Shown: positions 4,260 through 46,315 of the stretch, one piece after another
Position numbering within the stretch: position 1 is the first letter of the stretch
Layout: each line of letters opens with the position of its first letter
Virus record (IMG/VR): IMGVR_UViG_3300048599_000807
Span: 1-46,315 of that record
Length of the DNA: 46,315 nt
DNA from: a virus
Taxonomy: Duplodnaviria; Caudoviricetes
Direction: 5' to 3' (one strand)
Translations under genes and position numbers: made by a program
The notes under the pieces: model-generated
Databases searched by the model: none
Told to the model about the DNA's origin: nothing
Seen by the model: only the letters and a program-made list of their open reading frames with translations

Positions 4260-4577
4260 ATGGCAACCAAAGCGAAGGAAGCGGCAGCCGCCGCAGCACC
4301 GGCAGAACGTCCGGTGATCGTTTGCACGGAGCATCGGGGCGTGTTTTTCGGATACGCCACCGAGACCGGCGGCGAGGTGATCGCGCTCAAGCGGGCGCGG
4401 AATTGCGTGTACTGGTCGGCCGACTGCAAGGGATTCGTGGGGCTGGCAGCGAATGGCCCCACCAAAAGCTGCCGCGTCGGGCCTGCTGCCGACATGGAAT
4501 TGCGAGCAATTACGGCGGTGCTCGAAGTCTCGCCGGCCGCCGTGGAAGCCTGGGAGAAAGCGCCATGGCAGTCCTAA
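4260..4577 (+). CDS. DUF6948-like phage protein
   Basis: VIVCTEHRGVFFG...ARNCVYW...GLAANGP; GAGGAG SD before ATG 4260. Confidence 0.7.
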   Translation: MATKAKEAAAAAAPAERPVIVCTEHRGVFFGYATETGGEVIALKRARNCVYWSADCKGFVGLAANGPTKSCRVGPAADMELRAITAVLEVSPAAVEAWEKAPWQS

Positions 4578-5086
4578 CGGTGGGCGTGCGCCAGCCGCTG
4601 CAGTTCCTGCTCGTCGAGCTGGGGGCATGCCGCGAGGCCATCGCCTGGGCCCGCGATCAGGAACTAAGCCAAGTGACCTGGCAATCCGCGCCCGGCGAAT
4701 GGCGCAAGTGGCTCGCGGGGCGATTGAAGGTCGAACCGAAATTTGCCGCCGTTGAAAAGGCGGTCAACGCTGCCATCGAAAGTGGCTATGGCGATGGCTA
4801 TGGCTATGGCTATGGCGATGGCTATGGCGATGGCGATGGCTATGGCTATGGCTATGGCTATGGCTATGGCTATGGCTCTGGCGATGGCTATGGCGATGGC
4901 TCTGGCGATGGCTATGGCGATGGCTATGGCTATGGCGATGGCTATGGCTATGGCTATGGCGATGGCTATGGCTATGGCGATGGCTCTGGCGATGGCTATG
5001 GCGATGGCTCTGGCGATGGCTATGGCGATGGCTATGGCTATGGCGATGGCTATGGCTATGGCTATGGCTATGGCGATGGCTACTAG
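4565..5086 (+). CDS. Phage protein with LGAC N-terminal domain and 100-residue Gly-Tyr/Gly-Asp repeat tail
   Basis: ATG overlaps the end of the upstream gene; LLVELGACREAIAW followed by GYGDGYGYG repeats. Confidence 0.7.
   Translation: MAVLTVGVRQPLQFLLVELGACREAIAWARDQELSQVTWQSAPGEWRKWLAGRLKVEPKFAAVEKAVNAAIESGYGDGYGYGYGDGYGDGDGYGYGYGYGYGYGSGDGYGDGSGDGYGDGYGYGDGYGYGYGDGYGYGDGSGDGYGDGSGDGYGDGYGYGDGYGYGYGYGDGY
4784..5083 (+). repeat. Tandem hexamer array GGCTAT/GGCGAT/GGCTCT, about 50 units
   Basis: Directly visible; encodes GY/GD/GS dipeptides. Confidence 0.95.
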
Positions 5087-13479: not shown

Positions 13480-13953
13480 ATGCGAAAGGACATTCGCACG
13501 ATGTTTGCAGATAGTCGACGCGAACCGACCGTCACGGCCGACGAAACGCCCGACCCGGAATTCTGTCAGCAGTTGGCGGCTCGGATCGAATTGCACCTCC
13601 GGGCCGGCAATTGGCCCCTGGCCGCCCGGACGTTTCGCGAGGGGCGGAAACAGTTCGAACTGGACCGGGTCGAACGCCAGCACGTGCTGGCCCGCAGCGA
13701 GGCCGATTGGCTCGACGCGGACTTGGGCGAGTTGGAGATTCAAGCACGGACGTTCAACTCCCTGGTGAATCAGGGGTGCGAGACGATCCGGCAGGCGCTC
13801 GACCTGCTCAATTCGGGCAAACGCATTCCGCAGTTCGGCCAGGCTGCCTCTGACGAGGTTTGGCGGGCCGCGCGGAAACTCGGAATTACGCTGGCCCGCG
13901 CGGGCCAGGCAGAGGAAGTGAACCACGAAGCGCAAGGAGAGCGAGCATGTTAG
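13480..13953 (+). CDS. Protein with RNA polymerase alpha-subunit C-terminal-domain-like fold (alternative start 13501)
   Basis: LGELEIQARTFNSLVNQGCETIRQAL...IPQFGQAASDEV matches the alphaCTD pattern (L-L-vRs-N-L...IpnfG.kS..EI). Confidence 0.7.
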   Translation: MRKDIRTMFADSRREPTVTADETPDPEFCQQLAARIELHLRAGNWPLAARTFREGRKQFELDRVERQHVLARSEADWLDADLGELEIQARTFNSLVNQGCETIRQALDLLNSGKRIPQFGQAASDEVWRAARKLGITLARAGQAEEVNHEAQGERAC

Positions 13954-14432
13954 TGCTATCGCGAAAGGCTGGGGAATCGTTGGTGGTTGGTGAGGCCACG
14001 GTGGTGATCACCAAAGTGTCAGGCAACCGGGTATCGCTGGGCGTCGAAGCGCCCGACGAGGTGGCCATCGTGCGTGGCGAATGTTCGCCCTACGCCCAGG
14101 CCCGCAAGAAAGTCGACGCCACCACCGGCTGGCTGATCGAGCTACTGGGGCCCGCCTTGACCCCGTGGGGCGAGGGAGCGGAGAGCCGCCACCAATGGCG
14201 CTGGAAAGAAACCCGGGGCGAAATGATGCTCGAATGGGACCCGCTGAAACGCGACCTGCAGTTGTTAGCGATTTCGATGCTGAACGGGCATCCCGTCTCG
14301 GTGAAAGTGTTCTCGCAGCCCACGTGCCGGGAGGTGTTTCAGCTCGCCCTGGGGCTGGGGATTGCCCTGCAAAAGCCACCACGGCCGTCGCAGCCCAAGA
14401 AGCGGGCGGGGTTGACAGCGAAGCGGAAATGA
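13947..14432 (+). CDS. csrA: Carbon storage regulator CsrA/RsmA domain fused to an unknown C-terminal domain
   Basis: MLVLSRKAGESLVVG...RVSLGVEAPDEVAIVRGE; AAGGAG SD. Confidence 0.85.
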   Translation: MLVLSRKAGESLVVGEATVVITKVSGNRVSLGVEAPDEVAIVRGECSPYAQARKKVDATTGWLIELLGPALTPWGEGAESRHQWRWKETRGEMMLEWDPLKRDLQLLAISMLNGHPVSVKVFSQPTCREVFQLALGLGIALQKPPRPSQPKKRAGLTAKRK

Positions 14433-14643: not shown

Positions 14644-15054
14644 GTGTCGAAGTCTCTCGTTCCCGCGACTCTCCCCACCGCTGGCCAGGCCCTGCGTTGG
14701 GGATTTGCCCACTTGGACCTGTTCGGCCAGTACGCCGATGCCGCGCCGGCACTGCTGGCGGCCGAATCGTACAACCAGCGGTGGCTGGTGGTGCGCCCCT
14801 TGGGCGATCAGACCGCCCCGGCCCTCGACGAACTGTTTTCGCAGCCGGCGGCCCGTGGTCCGGAAACGGCCGAGGAACTGCTGGCCCTCGAAGAGGAGTT
14901 GCTGGCCCGCGCCAACGGCAACTTGGGCGCGCGAGCCGTTCCCCGCGATCGCAAGTGGCTGAAAGCCGCGCTGGCGGCCCTCAAGATCGGTATCCCGATG
15001 TTTGCCCCCGAAGCGGCCCAGTGGGTGGGCGTGCTCGACCTGCTGGCCAACTAG
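14644..15054 (+). CDS. Hypothetical protein with amphipathic C-terminus
   Basis: GAGGT SD plus GTG; KWLKAALAALKIGIPMF...WVGVLDLL. Confidence 0.65.
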   Translation: MSKSLVPATLPTAGQALRWGFAHLDLFGQYADAAPALLAAESYNQRWLVVRPLGDQTAPALDELFSQPAARGPETAEELLALEEELLARANGNLGARAVPRDRKWLKAALAALKIGIPMFAPEAAQWVGVLDLLAN

Positions 15055-15128
15055 GCCGGCTTGTTCACTTGGCCGCGACGGACGGTACCGGCGCGGCTTT
15101 CATGGTTGGTTGCGAGGGAGCGGGTTCG

Positions 15129-16064
15129 ATGCGATATCACGGTTGCTTCATCGGGATTGATTACCGCGGCACGACGGCCCAATTGGGTGGCTGTCGAGCC
15201 GATTCGCGTTCCTGGCGTGGCCGTGAGAACGCCGCAGATATACTCCGCTCGCCCGGCGAAGCCTGCGCGAGCGCCCTGATGCTGCTCGAAGAGAATGCCA
15301 CCAAGCGCCGCGTGGTCGAGTGCATGCGGGCCATGGCCGAAAAGTGCCCGATCGGCAGCGACGATTATTTCGTGCTGCAATTCAGCGGCCACGGCACGTT
15401 CAAGCGTGGCAATGACCCGAACGAAGTCGACGGCAACGACGAGGCGATCTGCTGCTATGACTACCAGCGCGGCGGCCTGCTGTGGGACAACGAAATCAGC
15501 GTCCTGCTGAGCGGCGGCCAGGGACTGTTTATCACCGACTGTTGCCATTCGCACACGCTGCTGCGCTCGACGGGCGAACTTCGCCCCCGCTTCCTCCCCT
15601 TCGACCAGATTGCCGAGGGGCTGAGCCCGTGCGAAATCAACAAGCTGTGCGAATCCGCGAATCAGACGCGGGCCCGGGCCAATGCCCTGCGCGATGCGTC
15701 GGGAGCCATTCCCGGCATTGTGCACCTGGCCGGCTGCCAGGATAGCGAATACAGCTATGACGCCAGTTTTGGTGGTCAGCCCAACGGCGCCATGACGTAC
15801 TTCGCCCTCGAGTCGTATCGGCAACTGCCGACGGGGGCCAACTTCCAGCAATGGATTGATCTGATTCAAACGAAGCTGCCGGACCGCGAGAACCGGTATC
15901 GGCAGCACCCGCAAATGACGGCCACCGCGGCGGATCTGCGGCGAGTCCTCCCCGGCCGCGAACTGCCCGTCGCCGATCCCCAGCCCTTGCCCGTGGTCAC
16001 CGGCCCGGGCGTCGACGTGGTGGTCGGAGGGTACCGGGCCGTGAAGTGGGAGCGGGTGCAATGA
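15129..16064 (+). CDS. Metacaspase / caspase-like cysteine protease (peptidase C14)
   Basis: FIGIDY...LGGC, ATKRRV, FSGHG (His), EVDGNDEAI, DCCHS (Cys), LAGCQDSEYSYD, GAMT, QHPQ; GAGGGAG SD. Confidence 0.9.
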   Translation: MRYHGCFIGIDYRGTTAQLGGCRADSRSWRGRENAADILRSPGEACASALMLLEENATKRRVVECMRAMAEKCPIGSDDYFVLQFSGHGTFKRGNDPNEVDGNDEAICCYDYQRGGLLWDNEISVLLSGGQGLFITDCCHSHTLLRSTGELRPRFLPFDQIAEGLSPCEINKLCESANQTRARANALRDASGAIPGIVHLAGCQDSEYSYDASFGGQPNGAMTYFALESYRQLPTGANFQQWIDLIQTKLPDRENRYRQHPQMTATAADLRRVLPGRELPVADPQPLPVVTGPGVDVVVGGYRAVKWERVQ

Positions 16065-16174
16065 ATCACTGGCTGCGCGAGAACTGGGAGGCAATCGCTT
16101 GCTTCGCGCTCGTCGCAGCCTACGCGGTTTTCGCGTGGTTCGTGTGGCAATGGTGGATTTCGAATTCGTTTTGA
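16061..16174 (+). CDS. 37-aa single-pass membrane peptide (not in the ORF track)
   Basis: ATGA overlap with the caspase stop; MNHWLRENWEAIACFALVAAYAVFAWFVWQWWISNSF. Confidence 0.55.
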   Translation: MNHWLRENWEAIACFALVAAYAVFAWFVWQWWISNSF

Positions 16175-16186
16175 AAGGTTGGAAAG

Positions 16187-16972
16187 ATGCGAGGTTTTTT
16201 GATTCTGGCGGGGCTACTGGCCCTTGCCGCTGGCTGTTCGTCGCAGGCAGACCCGTACCGCAAGGAAGTGAAGTACACCGAAAGCGACCTTGCCAACGCT
16301 CGCATCGAAGGCGCGGCGGCAATGTCTGAGATCATTAAGGAGCCGGAGGTTGCACCACCGCAGCCACCGGATGCCGGTTTCACTGGAGGCGAAGAGTACA
16401 TCGACGAAAAGGACATTCCTGCAGGCACGGAATTTGGCCGCTCGCTGCCGCGCGTGGTGATCGATGGCGTCAAGTTGAATCACGAGCGAGGTGGTGGGTT
16501 CGGCTACGTTGACGCGGTATTTGGGGCCGGCGCGATGTTCATCGACGTCGGGACTCACGAGCGCCAATTGTCGACGGGCTGTGACTACCGAGCCGATTCG
16601 AAGGACTTCAAGAACAAAGACGGCGACATTCTCGTGCAGTTCAAAGACGAGTCGCTGCAAATTATGCAAGGGGGCAAGTGGCGGCCGATTGAGACGGGCG
16701 ACCCTCTCCACGACAACGCCGCCAAATATCTGATTAAACGCGTTTCGCTCACACCCGACCGCTCCGCAGGCGTCGCACGCATCGGCGAGAGCAAGTATTG
16801 GGCGAAGTTCGAAGGCAAAGGTGGCTGGGTGATTGCCGACCCAGCGACGTTTCCTCATCTGCTGGCGGCGAAGGCCAACCGAGAAGCCGAACTGATTCGC
16901 GATAACAACCTGAGCGAGAACTGGCGCGACCGTCGGCCGCAAACCGTTCAAGTTGCCCCCTCTGCCCCCTAA
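16187..16972 (+). CDS. Lipoprotein of unknown function
   Basis: MRGFLILAGLLALAAG-C lipobox. Confidence 0.75.
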   Translation: MRGFLILAGLLALAAGCSSQADPYRKEVKYTESDLANARIEGAAAMSEIIKEPEVAPPQPPDAGFTGGEEYIDEKDIPAGTEFGRSLPRVVIDGVKLNHERGGGFGYVDAVFGAGAMFIDVGTHERQLSTGCDYRADSKDFKNKDGDILVQFKDESLQIMQGGKWRPIETGDPLHDNAAKYLIKRVSLTPDRSAGVARIGESKYWAKFEGKGGWVIADPATFPHLLAAKANREAELIRDNNLSENWRDRRPQTVQVAPSAP

Positions 16973-16987
16973 CAGGTTGTTTGCCTG

Positions 16988-18883
16988 ATGCACTGGTTGC
17001 TAGTTCTCTTCGCGTTCGCCCAATTGGAAGCCGCCCCGCCGGCCTTGCCCAAGGTGCGCCGCGACCTGAAACCAGGGAGCGAGGTGGCCACGCGCTACGA
17101 CGGGGTGAAACTGGCCCTGCGCGATACCCAGCACCTCGAGCAAGAGCACGAGGATCCGGGCCTGACCCGCTATGTGTTCATCCCGCCAAACATCGAGCCG
17201 GCCAGCGGCTTTCAGCAGGTAGCCCATATCGTCAATTCGACGATCACGCGGACCGCAGCCCGGCCGCAGCCCCGGCTGCTGCTCGACGAAGAGCGGGGCA
17301 CGGCCGTGGTGGCCGTCGACCTGGCCCATTGGGCGGGGAACGAATCGCAGATCGGCGAGCTCGTCGGGCTATGGGAGCGGCTGGCCGAGCGAGATTCATT
17401 TTTCAACGCGAAGGTGATCATTGCCGGCGACCAGGTGATCGAGGTCACCGAAGAGTTGCGGGCCGGGCTGGCCGTTGAAATCAAACTGAAAGATGGGACC
17501 TGGGGCAAAGCGACGTTCAAGAGCCGCAAGGGCTCGTTGCTATCGTGTGAATATGACGGCCGGCTGGTCGACCTGGTGGCCGAGAACGTGCGGCCGATCG
17601 CCAAGCCCACCGCACCCCTGCCCGTCGTGCGGAAAACATTCACGGCCGAACCGTACCTCAATCCGGAAGGGACGGCCCTGTTTGATATCACTCGCTCGAA
17701 TGTTCCGATCTTGCAGCTCGACGAGTTCGTCGCGGCGGCATTCTCGACGGTGAACGGCGGCCTGTATTACGAACTGGCCGGCGTGGAAAAGAACCTGGGG
17801 GACACCGTCGCGAAGTTTGCCGGCGCGGATGCCGCCAAGAAGGTGTTGAGGCAAACGGCCGTGATGCGACTGGCCGGCGAGCAGGTTCGCAAGCCGGGCG
17901 AGGCTCGATCGATTTTTCAGATTGCCGGCGAGTTCGACCAGGAACTGGCCAAAACCAAATGGGTGATGAACGAATCGAACGTCACCCGTCGCCAGCGGTC
18001 GGGCGTGTTCGTCGCTGGGGCCAACATTGCGCCGGCCGAGGGCCCGCAGCTCGTCGCCGTGACGTTTGACCTGGCCGAGGACAACGTATCGCCCGACGCC
18101 GATCCGCAGCGGCAGTTGTCGGTGTACGAAACCTACAACGGTGGCGAGGCCATTCTGGCCATGCCGAATGGCATGCTGCTCTATCTCGTGTTCGACGCCA
18201 ACGACAACATCATCGCCAGCGTGCCCGACACGGTGGCCTGGGACAGCAAAGCCACGTCGGTGCGCACGAACGCCGGCACGGTCCGCGTATTCAGCGGCGC
18301 GTCGTGCATGAACTGTCACGACGATACGCCCCGCAATTGGGGCTGGCAGCCGGTGCGAAACGACGTCGCGGAGGATTTTCGCAGCCTTGCGCACATCCTG
18401 GGGGACCGGCCCAAGAAGGGGACCAAGGCGTTTGACAAGCTGCAGGAGATTCAGCGGCTGGCGTCGGCCTATGCCGGCGACGATATCCAACTGGCCGCCA
18501 TGCTCGATCAGTCGCGGCTGAGCTATCAGCGGGCCGTTGACCTGGCCACCGGCGCCAAGGGGAGCGCCCCGGTCAACGCCGGGATCGCCGATAGCTACTG
18601 GTCGCACTGGTATGACGCCGTGTGGCCGGAGGACATTGTTCGCGACCTGGGGCAGGTGATGGCCCGGAAGGATGCCCAGGCCTTTCTGGTGAAACACATC
18701 GCGCCGAATCCCGACGCGGAGATCCCCGAACTGTTTCGCGAAGATCGCGTGATTGCTCGCGCGAAAGATGGCAAGAGCCTCACCCCTGCCCAGTACCGTG
18801 CGATCGCTCCGGAAATTGCCGAGCGATTTCTGTTTTCCCAAGCCAATCACCCCGACCCCGTTCTGGAAGGAATGAAGCCATGA
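16988..18883 (+). CDS. Exported protein with a CxxCH heme-attachment motif and SH3/Tudor-like insert
   Basis: Hydrophobic N-terminus; GGEAILAMPNGMLLY...SGASCMNCH (motif at 18305-18319). Confidence 0.7.
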   Translation: MHWLLVLFAFAQLEAAPPALPKVRRDLKPGSEVATRYDGVKLALRDTQHLEQEHEDPGLTRYVFIPPNIEPASGFQQVAHIVNSTITRTAARPQPRLLLDEERGTAVVAVDLAHWAGNESQIGELVGLWERLAERDSFFNAKVIIAGDQVIEVTEELRAGLAVEIKLKDGTWGKATFKSRKGSLLSCEYDGRLVDLVAENVRPIAKPTAPLPVVRKTFTAEPYLNPEGTALFDITRSNVPILQLDEFVAAAFSTVNGGLYYELAGVEKNLGDTVAKFAGADAAKKVLRQTAVMRLAGEQVRKPGEARSIFQIAGEFDQELAKTKWVMNESNVTRRQRSGVFVAGANIAPAEGPQLVAVTFDLAEDNVSPDADPQRQLSVYETYNGGEAILAMPNGMLLYLVFDANDNIIASVPDTVAWDSKATSVRTNAGTVRVFSGASCMNCHDDTPRNWGWQPVRNDVAEDFRSLAHILGDRPKKGTKAFDKLQEIQRLASAYAGDDIQLAAMLDQSRLSYQRAVDLATGAKGSAPVNAGIADSYWSHWYDAVWPEDIVRDLGQVMARKDAQAFLVKHIAPNPDAEIPELFREDRVIARAKDGKSLTPAQYRAIAPEIAERFLFSQANHPDPVLEGMKP

Positions 18884-19884
18884 AGTCGAGATTGCTCATG
18901 GCGCTGGCCCTGGTGGCCGGTGCCTGTCTCAGTTTGCTGCCCGCCGCTCACGCGCAATATGCCGGCTGTTACGGTGGCTATTGCCCGCCGCAGACCTATG
19001 CGAAGAGCTACGGCGGTTACAGCGGCCAGCGCTACTACAACACCAAGTCGGCCTGGGTGTATCGGCCGTGGCCCCAGGATGCAGGCTACTTCTATCACTA
19101 TTACACGGTCTACGATCACTGCGGGAACTGGGTCAACCACGACGATGGCTGGCTCTACACCTACCACGCCGGCTGTTATACGAAGCATTGCCGCATTAGC
19201 GAGTACGCCGGCAAACCCTCGCTGCAGCCGTCGCCGTACACGGATCCGCGGGGCTCGACCGAGGTGGGTTACTACGGACCGGACTATCAGGCCGCGCAGA
19301 AATATCCCTTGCTGCTGATCCCCGGCGTGCTCGCGCAAAAGAACCTGCCAGGCACGATTGACCCGCGCGACATTCTGGCCCCGTTCACGCCCACCGATCA
19401 GGCCCGGCAGCAGTTTGCGGAACGATCGCACGCGTCGGCCACCGAACTGGCCCTCAAGATTGCCCAAGGGGAGCAGGCCAAAGAGCTCGAACAGATCCGA
19501 GGCCGCAACGCCCTGGCCCGCGAGATTCAGGCCCATCAGAACGACGAGCGGTTTCTGGCTGAGATTAAGGAGTTTTTCGCCGTGCGCCGGCAGCAAGCGA
19601 CGATCGACGCTGGGGCGGTCGGCGCGTCGCGGTCGGTAATCAACGTGGGCAATCCCAAGCTCGCGGAGTTGATCAACGCACGGTGCATCAGTTGCCACGG
19701 CCCAGGCAAGGCCGATGGCGGCTTGAACTTCGCCGAAGTCACGGCGTCGAACCGGGCTGTGTGGCAAAAGAGCTATCGCAAATGTGCCACCGGCGAAATG
19801 CCCAAGGGTGGCGAACCGCTCAAGAACGACGAACTAGACCTGTTCGACGAGCAGTATCAATTCGCGCTCAAGTCGAGCGGATAA
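18880..19884 (+). CDS. Exported Tyr/Gly-rich protein with C-terminal planctomycete-type cytochrome c domain
   Basis: Signal peptide ending AHA; RCISCHGPGKADGGL...GEMPKGGEPL (CxxCH plus distal Met). Confidence 0.78.
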   Translation: MKSRLLMALALVAGACLSLLPAAHAQYAGCYGGYCPPQTYAKSYGGYSGQRYYNTKSAWVYRPWPQDAGYFYHYYTVYDHCGNWVNHDDGWLYTYHAGCYTKHCRISEYAGKPSLQPSPYTDPRGSTEVGYYGPDYQAAQKYPLLLIPGVLAQKNLPGTIDPRDILAPFTPTDQARQQFAERSHASATELALKIAQGEQAKELEQIRGRNALAREIQAHQNDERFLAEIKEFFAVRRQQATIDAGAVGASRSVINVGNPKLAELINARCISCHGPGKADGGLNFAEVTASNRAVWQKSYRKCATGEMPKGGEPLKNDELDLFDEQYQFALKSSG

Positions 19885-20081
19885 CCGATCAGCCCTGGGT
19901 AGGAGAGGCCTGGGGTGAGGCCGTTCGCCGTGACGCCCGCTTGTTGTGGGCATCGCCCGTCACGGCAACGGTTTTTCAGTGTGCGAATGGCCCGTGCCCA
20001 CGTGAGTGGGACGGGCTTGCGGCAGTAGTGGACCGAATTTCGGGACTCGCTTGATTCAGGTTTAGTTATGGAGGTTGTGTC

Positions 20082-20399
20082 ATGGGTGGTTTGCTCATTG
20101 GATTGTTGGCGCTGTGCTCGCTGATCCTGGTTGCGTTCGTCTACCGCTCGCGGAGTAGCAATCAGCAGCACAGCAAGGGGCGCGTGGTGCGTCGCTTCGC
20201 TGGTGGCGTCGCCGTTCTTTTCGCTCTGCTAATGCTGTGCGCCACGGCGGAGGCGACCGGGCCACGCCCTCGCTCGCGAGACTTTAACGACGGATTCAAT
20301 GCCGGCGTGAGAGCCGCACGAGGGCACGGGCCGCGCAACGTAGGCCCGCAGTTTGAATTCCGCTTTGGCCCCCGCGGTCGGCTGCGGTCGATTCGCTAG
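20082..20399 (+). CDS. Small membrane protein with two hydrophobic segments and a basic tail
   Basis: GGAGG SD; LLIGLLALCSLILVAFVY and GVAVLFALLMLCA. Confidence 0.55.
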   Translation: MGGLLIGLLALCSLILVAFVYRSRSSNQQHSKGRVVRRFAGGVAVLFALLMLCATAEATGPRPRSRDFNDGFNAGVRAARGHGPRNVGPQFEFRFGPRGRLRSIR

Positions 20400-20485
20400 T
20401 CGCTTGCCTGGCCGACTCCCGCCGTGCAGTACGCTCCTGCCGGCGGGGGTTTCCCTTACTCACCTGCCTAGAAAGCACATCACGA

Positions 20486-20848
20486 ATGGACGCTGATGCC
20501 ATCGCCGGGCTGATCACCACGCTGATGAACCTGGCCGATCGGTACGGTATCGGAGCAGTGATCACAGTTGCGTTGATCATCGTGCTGCTCTGGCTGCGCC
20601 CTTACCTCGACCGTGCGTTCAACGCCCACATCACGCTAGTGCAAACCATGGCAGAGGAGTCGCCCAAGCAAACAGCAGCACTCGAACGGGTGGCTGAGGT
20701 GACCGAAGGCATGAAGGGTGAGAAGGCAGCACTGCACCACCTGTCAAAGGGCATCGAAGAGATACCCGCATGTGAGGATAGGCGGAAGGCAGTACGAGTG
20801 CACACACAGAACGCCCGCGACGCACTCAACAGGCATTCGGAAGGATGA
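20486..20848 (+). CDS. Holin-like single-TM protein with coiled-coil tail
   Basis: RYGIGAVITVALIIVLLWL then a helical soluble region; directly before the packaging region. Confidence 0.5.
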   Translation: MDADAIAGLITTLMNLADRYGIGAVITVALIIVLLWLRPYLDRAFNAHITLVQTMAEESPKQTAALERVAEVTEGMKGEKAALHHLSKGIEEIPACEDRRKAVRVHTQNARDALNRHSEG

Positions 20849-20875: not shown

Positions 20876-20935
20876 GGGTCCTTCCCCGGGCCCCCCAGCA
20901 GGGGGCGAAAGCTTCATCGCCGGGGTTTTTTACGC
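20876..20935 (+). other. Lambda-like cos packaging site (cosQ-like GGGTCCT)
   Basis: GGGTCCT at 20876-20882, GC-rich segment, then CGGGGTTTTTT, upstream of GpA-type terminase genes. Confidence 0.55.
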
Positions 20936-45833: not shown

Positions 45834-46315
45834 GCACGGCGACCGGCCCCACCAATAGCAAAGTGATGCTCGTTTGCCCGCATTGTTCCATGCGGCTGCG
45901 GGAGCTCGACCCGGCCGACATTCCGCCGCAAGGGATCGTCTGCCGTTGCGGCAATCGCCTGCACCCGGCCGCCTCGCGTCCCGATCCGGGCCGCCGGCGA
46001 CCCGCGCCGGTCGAGGGCCCCGGTAAGGAACTGGCCCTGCTGCTCCGCTCGCTGGGCATCAGCGAGCCGCCTGGCTGCGACTGCCAGTCGCGCATGGCCC
46101 GCATGAACCGCTGGGGCTCTGCCGGCTGCCGCGAGCATTACTGCGAAATTCGCACCTGGCTGCGGCAGGCCTATAGCAGCACGCCCTGGCCCGCGCGGCT
46201 GCGGGCCTCGACGGCCGCGATCGCCAGCGGCCTGGCCCTGCAGATCGATCCCCTCGACCCGCTGGGCAGCCTCATTCAGATCGCGATCGCCCGGGCCGAG
46301 GCGCAGGGGCTCTAG
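45830..46315 (+). CDS. Cys-rich hypothetical protein
   Basis: ATGA overlap; CPHC, CRC, GPGKEL...LGI...CDC..RMARMN.WG..GC. Confidence 0.7.
   Translation: MSTATGPTNSKVMLVCPHCSMRLRELDPADIPPQGIVCRCGNRLHPAASRPDPGRRRPAPVEGPGKELALLLRSLGISEPPGCDCQSRMARMNRWGSAGCREHYCEIRTWLRQAYSSTPWPARLRASTAAIASGLALQIDPLDPLGSLIQIAIARAEAQGL

Follow-up and report, generated by a model that had tools for sequence, protein, structure and literature searches.

A recurring late-region phage module with an exchangeable protease and paired haem proteins: a candidate exit cassette

The holin, endolysin and spanin genes of lambdoid phages form a cassette that sits before the terminase genes, is co-oriented with them, and exchanges the family of its hydrolase freely. 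Here we examine a block of eight genes at the corresponding position of a provirus, IMG/VR record IMGVR_UViG_3300048599_000807, whose whole length of 46,315 bases is the stretch of DNA analyzed (the window). The block spans positions 14644-20848 and encodes a caspase-like C14 protease, an amphipathic protein (H), two CxxCH proteins (A and B), a small cationic protein (C), a predicted lipoprotein and two small membrane proteins. In other phages we observed the same gene content and co-occurrence, exchange of the protease and, in some records, a MauG-family gene in the position of A and B. What recurs in the late region is thus a module and not a system built around a caspase. As to its role, the reading that we favour, at about even odds and from sequence comparison, is a late, protease-based exit (lysis) cassette whose accessories would be a cationic peptide and a two-haem oxidant acting in the periplasm.

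The block resembles the lambdoid cassette in its position before the terminase genes, its co-orientation, the placing of a signal-less hydrolase beside small membrane genes, its exported partners, and the free exchange of the hydrolase family. It differs in that the hydrolase is a general protease rather than a peptidoglycan hydrolase, in having no Rz/Rz1 pair, and in carrying a cationic peptide and a pair of c-type haem proteins. By layout it resembles a lysis cassette, but one that lacks the endolysin of the canonical arrangement. A literature search, conducted largely outside the subscription journals, returned no description of such a cassette.

The host is probably a planctomycete, because 14 of the 15 high-scoring genome loci that carry A belong to Planctomycetota, the other lying on a jumbo-phage-like contig that was binned with an actinobacterium. 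The cassette names genes to delete and activities to assay in asking by what route phages escape from planctomycetes and which layer of the envelope is load-bearing. In a 2009 paper (PMC2754498) the wall of planctomycetes is described as a sacculus of protein held together by disulfide bonds.

The late block, its protease and its small membrane genes

The provirus was cut from a 533-kb contig and has a CheckV completeness of 60%. It starts with an integrase and early genes and continues into the terminase, portal, capsid and tail-region genes, and the block lies between the early genes on one side and a ParB-like gene and the terminase genes on the other. This late-region position, co-oriented with the packaging genes, is shared by many relatives. 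The eight plus-strand open reading frames (ORFs) listed for the block by a first-pass annotation, made from the window alone, all exist as described. Because the same order recurs in divergent phages, the gene order is far beyond chance. G+C content at third codon positions is 0.78-0.84 for H, the caspase, A and B, and 0.75-0.84 for the structural genes; the lipoprotein and the last gene of the block, which encodes 120 residues, each have 0.69. No promoter-like site was found, and a query for sequencing runs of the block listed none. A terminator-like hairpin (20904-20921, plus strand), a consensus match only, marks its downstream end; there are 9 such sites against 6.5 expected, so that the hairpin alone is not significant.

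The protease (15129-16064, plus strand, 311 residues, best start ATG 15129) matches Pfam Peptidase_C14 with E 7.6e-15 and lacks a hydrophobic N-terminus, in agreement with the earlier description of an intact C14 protease without a signal peptide. Its SGHG (residues 86-89) and DCCHS (137-141) motifs supply a His88 and Cys139 dyad that aligns with the solved metacaspases GSU0716, Yca1 and TbMCA2, as C14 membership demands. Also retained in this alignment, as in those metacaspases, are the acidic residues Asp25 and Asp137, which we take to be tied to the Arg/Lys specificity of metacaspases. Unlike those enzymes, the window caspase has an extra C-terminal tail, made of a Pro-containing linker and a short predicted beta segment. 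Forty-nine residues follow its last QxPQ motif, and 40-49 do so across both caspases found in such cassettes; of 21 phage metacaspases from outside a cassette, 15 have 13-17 residues there and the other 6 lack the motif. Tail-less metacaspases were seen in 21 of 39 pattern-matched viral contigs (L140-L178), some of them large, in unrelated gene contexts.

H (14644-15054, plus strand) is a 136-residue amphipathic protein without a long transmembrane segment; its gene immediately precedes that of the protease, and its GTG start lies downstream of a GAGGT site. It had no match in Pfam, PHROGs or PADLOC, and only low-score matches in the Atlas. It is 34% identical (E 2.9e-13) to the product of the gene upstream of the caspase in the other caspase-bearing locus, L004, and in both loci Arg/Lys residues directly precede its amphipathic helix. 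S8, M10, astacin-like and C1 proteases also have genes of similar character, mostly non-alignable, beside them or fused to them, and an H-like neighbour was present in 24 of 59 protease loci as against 68 of 493 background genes. H is a type of protein rather than a proven family, and it is a candidate membrane-permeabilising partner of the protease.

A 37-residue single-transmembrane peptide (16061-16174, plus strand, by hydropathy) overlaps the protease stop by ATGA. L004 has a 42-residue hydrophobic ORF with the identical overlap and no sequence match to the peptide, which is a candidate holin-like accessory. The last gene of the block (20486-20848, plus strand) encodes an N-terminal transmembrane segment and a helical tail; the first-pass annotation had called it holin-like, and by hydropathy it does have one clear hydrophobic segment, so that it is holin-like in shape only. 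Neither of these two single-transmembrane genes has a homologue in the fetched loci or a match to holin families in Pfam, PHROGs or NCBIfam, and genes shaped like the 120-residue one occur near other cassettes. The predicted lipoprotein (16187-16972, plus strand, 261 residues, lipobox ending at Cys17) and the 120-residue protein were considered as a spanin pair; they lie 3.5 kb apart, and neither matches any family in Pfam or PHROGs. The lipoprotein matched only itself among 5181 candidates and nothing in the fetched loci; it had been taken as part of the system, and by these comparisons it is instead a variable passenger outside the conserved core.

Recurrence of the module and exchange of its enzymes

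After removal of 10 duplicate or overlapping loci and 5 of about 700 bases, 34 close-type loci besides the window remained, and 24 of these have a protease within 3.5 kb of A. When the window is counted and a clade of 10 related chromosomal elements is dropped, the figure is 17 of 25. The recurrence of a protease at this slot and of the accompanying genes in related phages, which the first-pass annotation had named as a check on its proposal, was found across divergent phages. Five protease families occupy the slot: C14, S8, M10, astacin-like and C1. Pfam backs members of S8, M10, astacin, C14 and C1, and the papain-like protease of L023 and the astacin-like one of L035 were assigned by motif only. 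On a FastTree phylogeny of A the protease family changes at least 9 times, the mean for shuffled families being 13.7; by this tree, relatives tend to share a protease family, yet swaps are repeated. The window's nearest relatives by A carry a caspase (66% identity) and a matrixin (51% identity), and the two caspase-bearing cassette loci are close relatives of each other. The slot proteases examined have no signal peptide, and in most of them the C-terminus consists of a linker, which is often rich in proline, and a short tail. A PG_binding_1 match on one matrixin was rejected as evidence of wall binding; it covers a segment that we take to be the cysteine-switch prodomain.

The gene order A-B-C is tighter than its linkage to the protease. 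B follows A in 28 of the 29 loci with downstream DNA, and a C-type gene follows B in 25 of 28, of which 24 were found by tally (net charge +3 to +12), after three spurious picks had been removed by eye, and 1 by reading. An endonuclease-like gene stands between A and B in L012 (10660-11238, an HNH_3 match) and in L045, where the pair is otherwise kept. A response-regulator receiver gene directly precedes A in L020 and L035, and a PAS-domain gene follows C in L021. Nine loci from Planctomycetota genomes (L053, L069, L073, L080, L083, L087, L106, L108 and L118) form a related clade of cassette-bearing elements. Wherever the fetched DNA extends downstream, the cassette is followed by ParB-like, ABC-like and terminase genes; L053, L073 and L106 share one chromosomal site for it, behind a MoaB-like gene and a nuclease gene. 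This clade is possibly a domesticated prophage or an element like a gene-transfer agent.

The association also holds from the side of one protease: among non-seed astacin-like phage protease loci, fetched without regard to A, 10 of 12 have A within 10 kb (9 of 11 minus one duplicate). At seven S8 loci that lack A, representing about four lineages (L215-L217, L237, L243, L256 and L267), a CCP_MauG two-haem gene adjoins the protease or follows it within about 800 bases. The family-A loci from the pattern and metagenome scans were searched for a CCP_MauG gene and none had one, and A+B and MauG-family genes are apparently either-or at the slot. The cassette exchanges five protease families and, at one slot, two unrelated two-haem enzymes. 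L243 also has a gene for a predicted exported thioredoxin near its CCP_MauG gene. In 4 of 6 replacement enzymes a Tyr stands at what we take to be the second-haem Met ligand site of canonical peroxidases. According to the accessible text of PMC6405878, BthA and MauG have a Tyr ligand at the six-coordinate haem. The best NCBIfam scores of a replacement enzyme, under the cut-off, were to the MauG and MbnH models.

Endolysins were sought in the window and in its relatives. Fifty-two ORFs of the window had no match to a peptidoglycan-hydrolase family in PHROGs, nor did six-frame searches of the window for four such families give one, and the earlier statement that no endolysin is recognisable there was borne out. 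Four close-type relatives at least 90% complete gave no match to Amidase_2, Amidase_3, lysozyme, M15_3, M15_4, M23 or SLT; these seven families had working controls, and GH108 and GH19, whose controls gave no match, were left out of the count. Pfam searches of the 92, 123 and 109 called ORFs of three of these four relatives likewise returned no peptidoglycan hydrolase.

The haem proteins A and B and the peptide C

A (16988-18883, plus strand, 631 residues) is a predicted exported monohaem c protein with CxxCH at residue 440. B (18880-19884, plus strand, 334 residues), which overlaps A by ATGA, is also predicted to be exported and has CxxCH at residue 269. The pair had been described as two coupled exported CxxCH proteins; the motifs and the coupling are present, and the export of A is presumed from a short signal peptide that falls below the hydropathy threshold.

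No Pfam, PHROG or NCBIfam model covers A. Homologue searches returned 35 and 209 proteins, and the 155 sequences retrieved each contain exactly one CxxCH. Tyr260, Ser330, Arg337, Glu387, Pro413 and Asn458 are invariant among them, and no Met, second His or Lys is. The top three Atlas clusters matching A are virus-rich. Loci were collected with degenerate DNA patterns, by which 31 of 33 viral-contig loci and 23 of 95 GTDB-genome loci proved to be family members; scans of viral and genome contigs with the single protein or an A1 alignment, and a tblastn search of GenBank phages, gave no result. A search by phylum matched 8 of 301 genomes, with four candidates scored per genome, and is not an estimate of prevalence. 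Family A is a large, confidently modelled haem-protein family that no Pfam entry covers, and it merits characterization whatever its role.

Models of the family had a predicted local distance difference test score of 85.6, or 93.4 for a homologue without the Tudor/SH3-like insert that A has at about residues 153-211. This insert was the sole return of a first VIA search; with the model of the L087 homologue, cytochrome c'-beta/P460 chains ranked 1, 2, 3, 9 and 29 among 48,161. The top three had Z scores of 5.5, 4.7 and 4.4, and the best aligned 101 residues at a root-mean-square deviation (rmsd) of 3.5, which is a low score; the aligned region holds the invariant residues and CxxCH. With neither model of A did Foldseek return anything from PDB or BFVD at E<=0.001. 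We give the low score weight because an unguided search with a CxxCH protein ranked that haem family at the top, and a remote cytochrome P460/c'-beta fold is likely for the core of A, weak as the modelled match is. Like the P460/c'-beta structures 8brk, 6hiu, 7s5o and 2je3, A has a predicted beta-sheet core that ends with the CxxCH, an invariant Arg and Glu, and neither a second His nor a Met conserved as a ligand. It differs from them in being 3-4 times larger, with extra domains, at 10-17% identity and Z 3.3-5.5, in pairing with a separate cytochrome, and in showing no invariant Lys for a haem cross-link, which P460 has. In the accessible part of PMC11928373, c'-beta haems are described as five-coordinate, P460 as having a distal carboxylate, and one c'-beta protein as peroxidase-like.

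The N-terminal part of B is rich in Tyr and Gly, and its C-terminal domain is a cytochrome c of class I (His/Met-type), with Pfam scores under the cut-off to Cytochrome_CBB3 (E 9.4e-5) and PSCyt1 (E 0.022). All 17 aligned B sequences keep the CxxCH and a Met-Pro, and of 28 B proteins 27 have a Met-Pro after the CxxCH; the C-terminal domain of B has the CxxCH with a distal Met some 30-45 residues on that typifies class I cytochromes c. In 15 of 15 chromosomal homologues of A, an N-terminal cytochrome c (CxxCH) domain is joined to the A domain, and because of this fusion the phage A+B pair has the look of a bacterial two-haem protein divided into two chains. Phage A forms its own clade, apart from the fused form, in the trees of A, which are quick or FastTree only. 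In this fusion of an N-terminal cytochrome c domain to a further domain, the chromosomal homologues resemble the PSCyt1-containing proteins (PF07635) of the PVC group. The modules named for those proteins in the portion of PMC3542564 consulted (DUF1501, PSCyt2 and PSD1) are other domains, and PSCyt1 modules are there treated as of unknown function; the phage form differs further in being split and in its own clade. In L077 and L089, chromosomal two-haem homologues of A adjoin genes for predicted secreted caspase-like proteins, and by these two loci the link between the A domain and proteases exists outside phages too.

A+B also resembles the di-haem peroxidase/MauG/BthA family (PF03150) in having two c haems, one predicted to be open and one for electron transfer, in its predicted export, and in that PF03150 genes occupy the same slot in seven other phage records. 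It differs in that A and B have no PF03150 match, carry one CxxCH each on two polypeptides, and have a different predicted fold; two CxxCH motifs in a single chain, as PF03150 has, are found only in the replacement genes.

C (20082-20399, plus strand) is a small protein whose C-terminal part of about 71 residues comprises a signal-like segment and a cationic peptide. The gene had been annotated as a 2-TM protein and is better read as this conserved peptide with an extra N-terminal hydrophobic segment. The mature part is a Gly/Arg/Phe-rich peptide of about 49 residues and net charge +7, and C-type mature parts in other loci are likewise cationic, acid-poor and of low complexity behind a signal-like start. 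The C sequences share charge and composition, with no conserved residue as a possible modification site. In size and charge, the sole terms of the comparison, C resembles PhiKT gp28 disruptin, which the accessible part of its report (10.1101/515445) presents as a small cationic peptide in a phage lysis context; it differs in its signal-like segment, its low-complexity Gly/Phe/Val/Arg sequence and its want of an amphipathic helix. C is a candidate for an outer-membrane disruptor or for a substrate of A+B.

A proposed exit function and its alternatives

An exit role is suggested by the position of the block, the missing endolysins, the signal-less and exchangeable hydrolase, and the small membrane genes. 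In the course of events that we propose, the signal-less protease would build up in the cytoplasm as an endolysin does, H and the small membrane proteins would open the inner membrane, and the protease would then digest envelope protein, the tail after its proline linker possibly serving in targeting. A and B, exported and haem-loaded, would act as a split two-haem peroxidase-like enzyme, with an open catalytic haem in A and electrons passed by B. The outcome would be an oxidative weakening of envelope cross-links or of the outer membrane, which is the weakest step of the proposal, and the exported cationic C would destabilize the outer membrane. We rate as possible, but as less likely than not, a fuller version, the lysis of planctomycetes without endolysin or spanin. 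In it any general protease would dissolve a sacculus made of protein, a phage-encoded periplasmic two-haem oxidant, either a split P460-like enzyme or a MauG-family stand-in, would break its cross-links, and an exported cationic peptide would rupture the outer membrane. If that version is true, the load-bearing layer of planctomycete cells would be protein. The cassette would add redox chemistry to phage lysis.

A number of observations weigh against an exit cassette. At ten of the 34 loci the 3.5 kb around A hold no protease. Among these ten, two jumbo phages have a matrixin 20-25 kb from A-B-C, one locus has an S8 protease 7 kb from A, three have little or no upstream DNA, and in four no protease was detected, including G004, which is 88% complete and has A-B-C. 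A is present in only 4 of 62 non-seed S8 loci, many of which look unrelated to the cassette group while many others have an H-like gene without A, and A-B-C is not needed wherever an S8-type slot protease occurs. Neither A nor H was present within 6 kb at any of 21 further loci with a phage metacaspase, and for this reason the caspase itself is incidental. The window's own H failed the crude filter for H-like genes, a class that is defined by character. The fold match of A is weak (Z 5.5, rmsd 3.5, 101 residues). Distant A-like proteins, which align to A solely over the haem-proximal core, occur in four near-complete phages that all carry a peptidoglycan hydrolase (one match under the cut-off) within about 4 kb of the A-like gene, and because they coexist with true endolysins the haem pair is not by itself an endolysin replacement. 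The comparison of endolysins covered phages with A or a distant A-like gene, and the incomplete record ends at 46315, so that an endolysin may lie further on. Planctomycetes are now held to have peptidoglycan, and for that reason an unrecognised hydrolase may exist.

In L018, L024, L037 and L039, the distant A-like gene encodes a lipoprotein and stands with genes that we presume, from their motifs, to encode a YceI-like protein and a CxxCH-bearing outer-membrane barrel; an amidase or M15 peptidase gene adjoins these in 3 of the 4.

Another reading is a division of labour in which the protease and H lyse the cell, and A+B, merely sharing the late operon, form a protective periplasmic redox module that scavenges peroxide or nitric oxide or senses ligands. 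Pairs of an H-like gene and an S8 protease are frequent without A, the jumbo phages hold A-B-C far from the protease, and the distant A-like genes adjoin, by eye, the YceI-like and barrel-like genes. The chemistry would also fit, inasmuch as the five-coordinate haem of c'-beta proteins binds ligands, one of these proteins being peroxidase-like (PMC11928373, in part), and BthA reduces hydrogen peroxide (PMC6405878, in part). Such a module would nevertheless leave the constant cationic C unexplained, the Tyr in most of the replacement enzymes leans toward an oxidant role, and astacin-like proteases mostly stay linked to A, and we consider it unlikely. Somewhat more doubtful still is that A+B is a MauG-like protein modifier, acting on C or on the Tyr-rich region of B by cross-linking or maturation. 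The product, either periplasmic or secreted, would be processed by the protease and would serve in envelope reinforcement, superinfection exclusion or as a toxin. This would suit the tight A-B-C order, the low complexity of C and its predicted export to the compartment of A and B, and the sub-threshold MauG and MbnH scores of a replacement enzyme. It fits poorly with C sequences that conserve no residue for modification, with a protease that, having no signal peptide, would not meet C until the membrane opens, and with MauG-family genes after which no C-type gene was noted by eye; the missing endolysin would also go unexplained.

A role in prophage defence or lysogenic conversion, in which the caspase cleaves H as a death effector in the way that bacterial caspases activate gasdermins, is distinctly improbable. 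The protease does match the PADLOC caspase model (E 3.2e-10), Arg/Lys residues stand just before the amphipathic helix of H in both caspase loci, and two chromosomal A homologues adjoin caspase-like genes. The two loci with a cassette caspase are close relatives, however, and cleavage of H would be equally compatible with lysis. No other gene of the block matches PADLOC, and no neighbour of the caspase matches a death effector in Pfam, NCBIfam or PADLOC. In contrast to caspase-gasdermin systems, there is no adjacent gasdermin or defence gene and the caspase is replaceable by unrelated proteases; gasdermins are, moreover, much longer than the 136 residues of H. The module is also found among the structural genes of jumbo phages, and in the window it is co-oriented with the late genes and has native codon use, and no promoter-like site was found. 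The first-pass annotation had offered protease-based lysis or envelope disruption beside a caspase-centred defence, and the comparisons support the former and leave the latter unsupported. Least probable of all, and very much so, is that independent morons have gathered where insertion is tolerated and that a conventional endolysin lies beyond the window. Such a view could draw on the 60% completeness of the record, the singleton lipoprotein and the two small membrane genes without homologues in the fetched loci. Against it stand near-complete relatives without the endolysin families tested and the recurrence of order and content in phages whose A is only 22-27% identical to that of the window; it is largely refuted for the core genes and stands for the lipoprotein alone.

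Two further observations concern genes upstream of the block. An ORF among the early genes (4565-5086) contains a long Gly/Tyr/Asp repeat tract. Directly upstream of the block, at 13480-14432, lie a gene with a weak match to the RNA polymerase alpha-CTD and a CsrA-like gene, either of which could act as a regulator of late expression.

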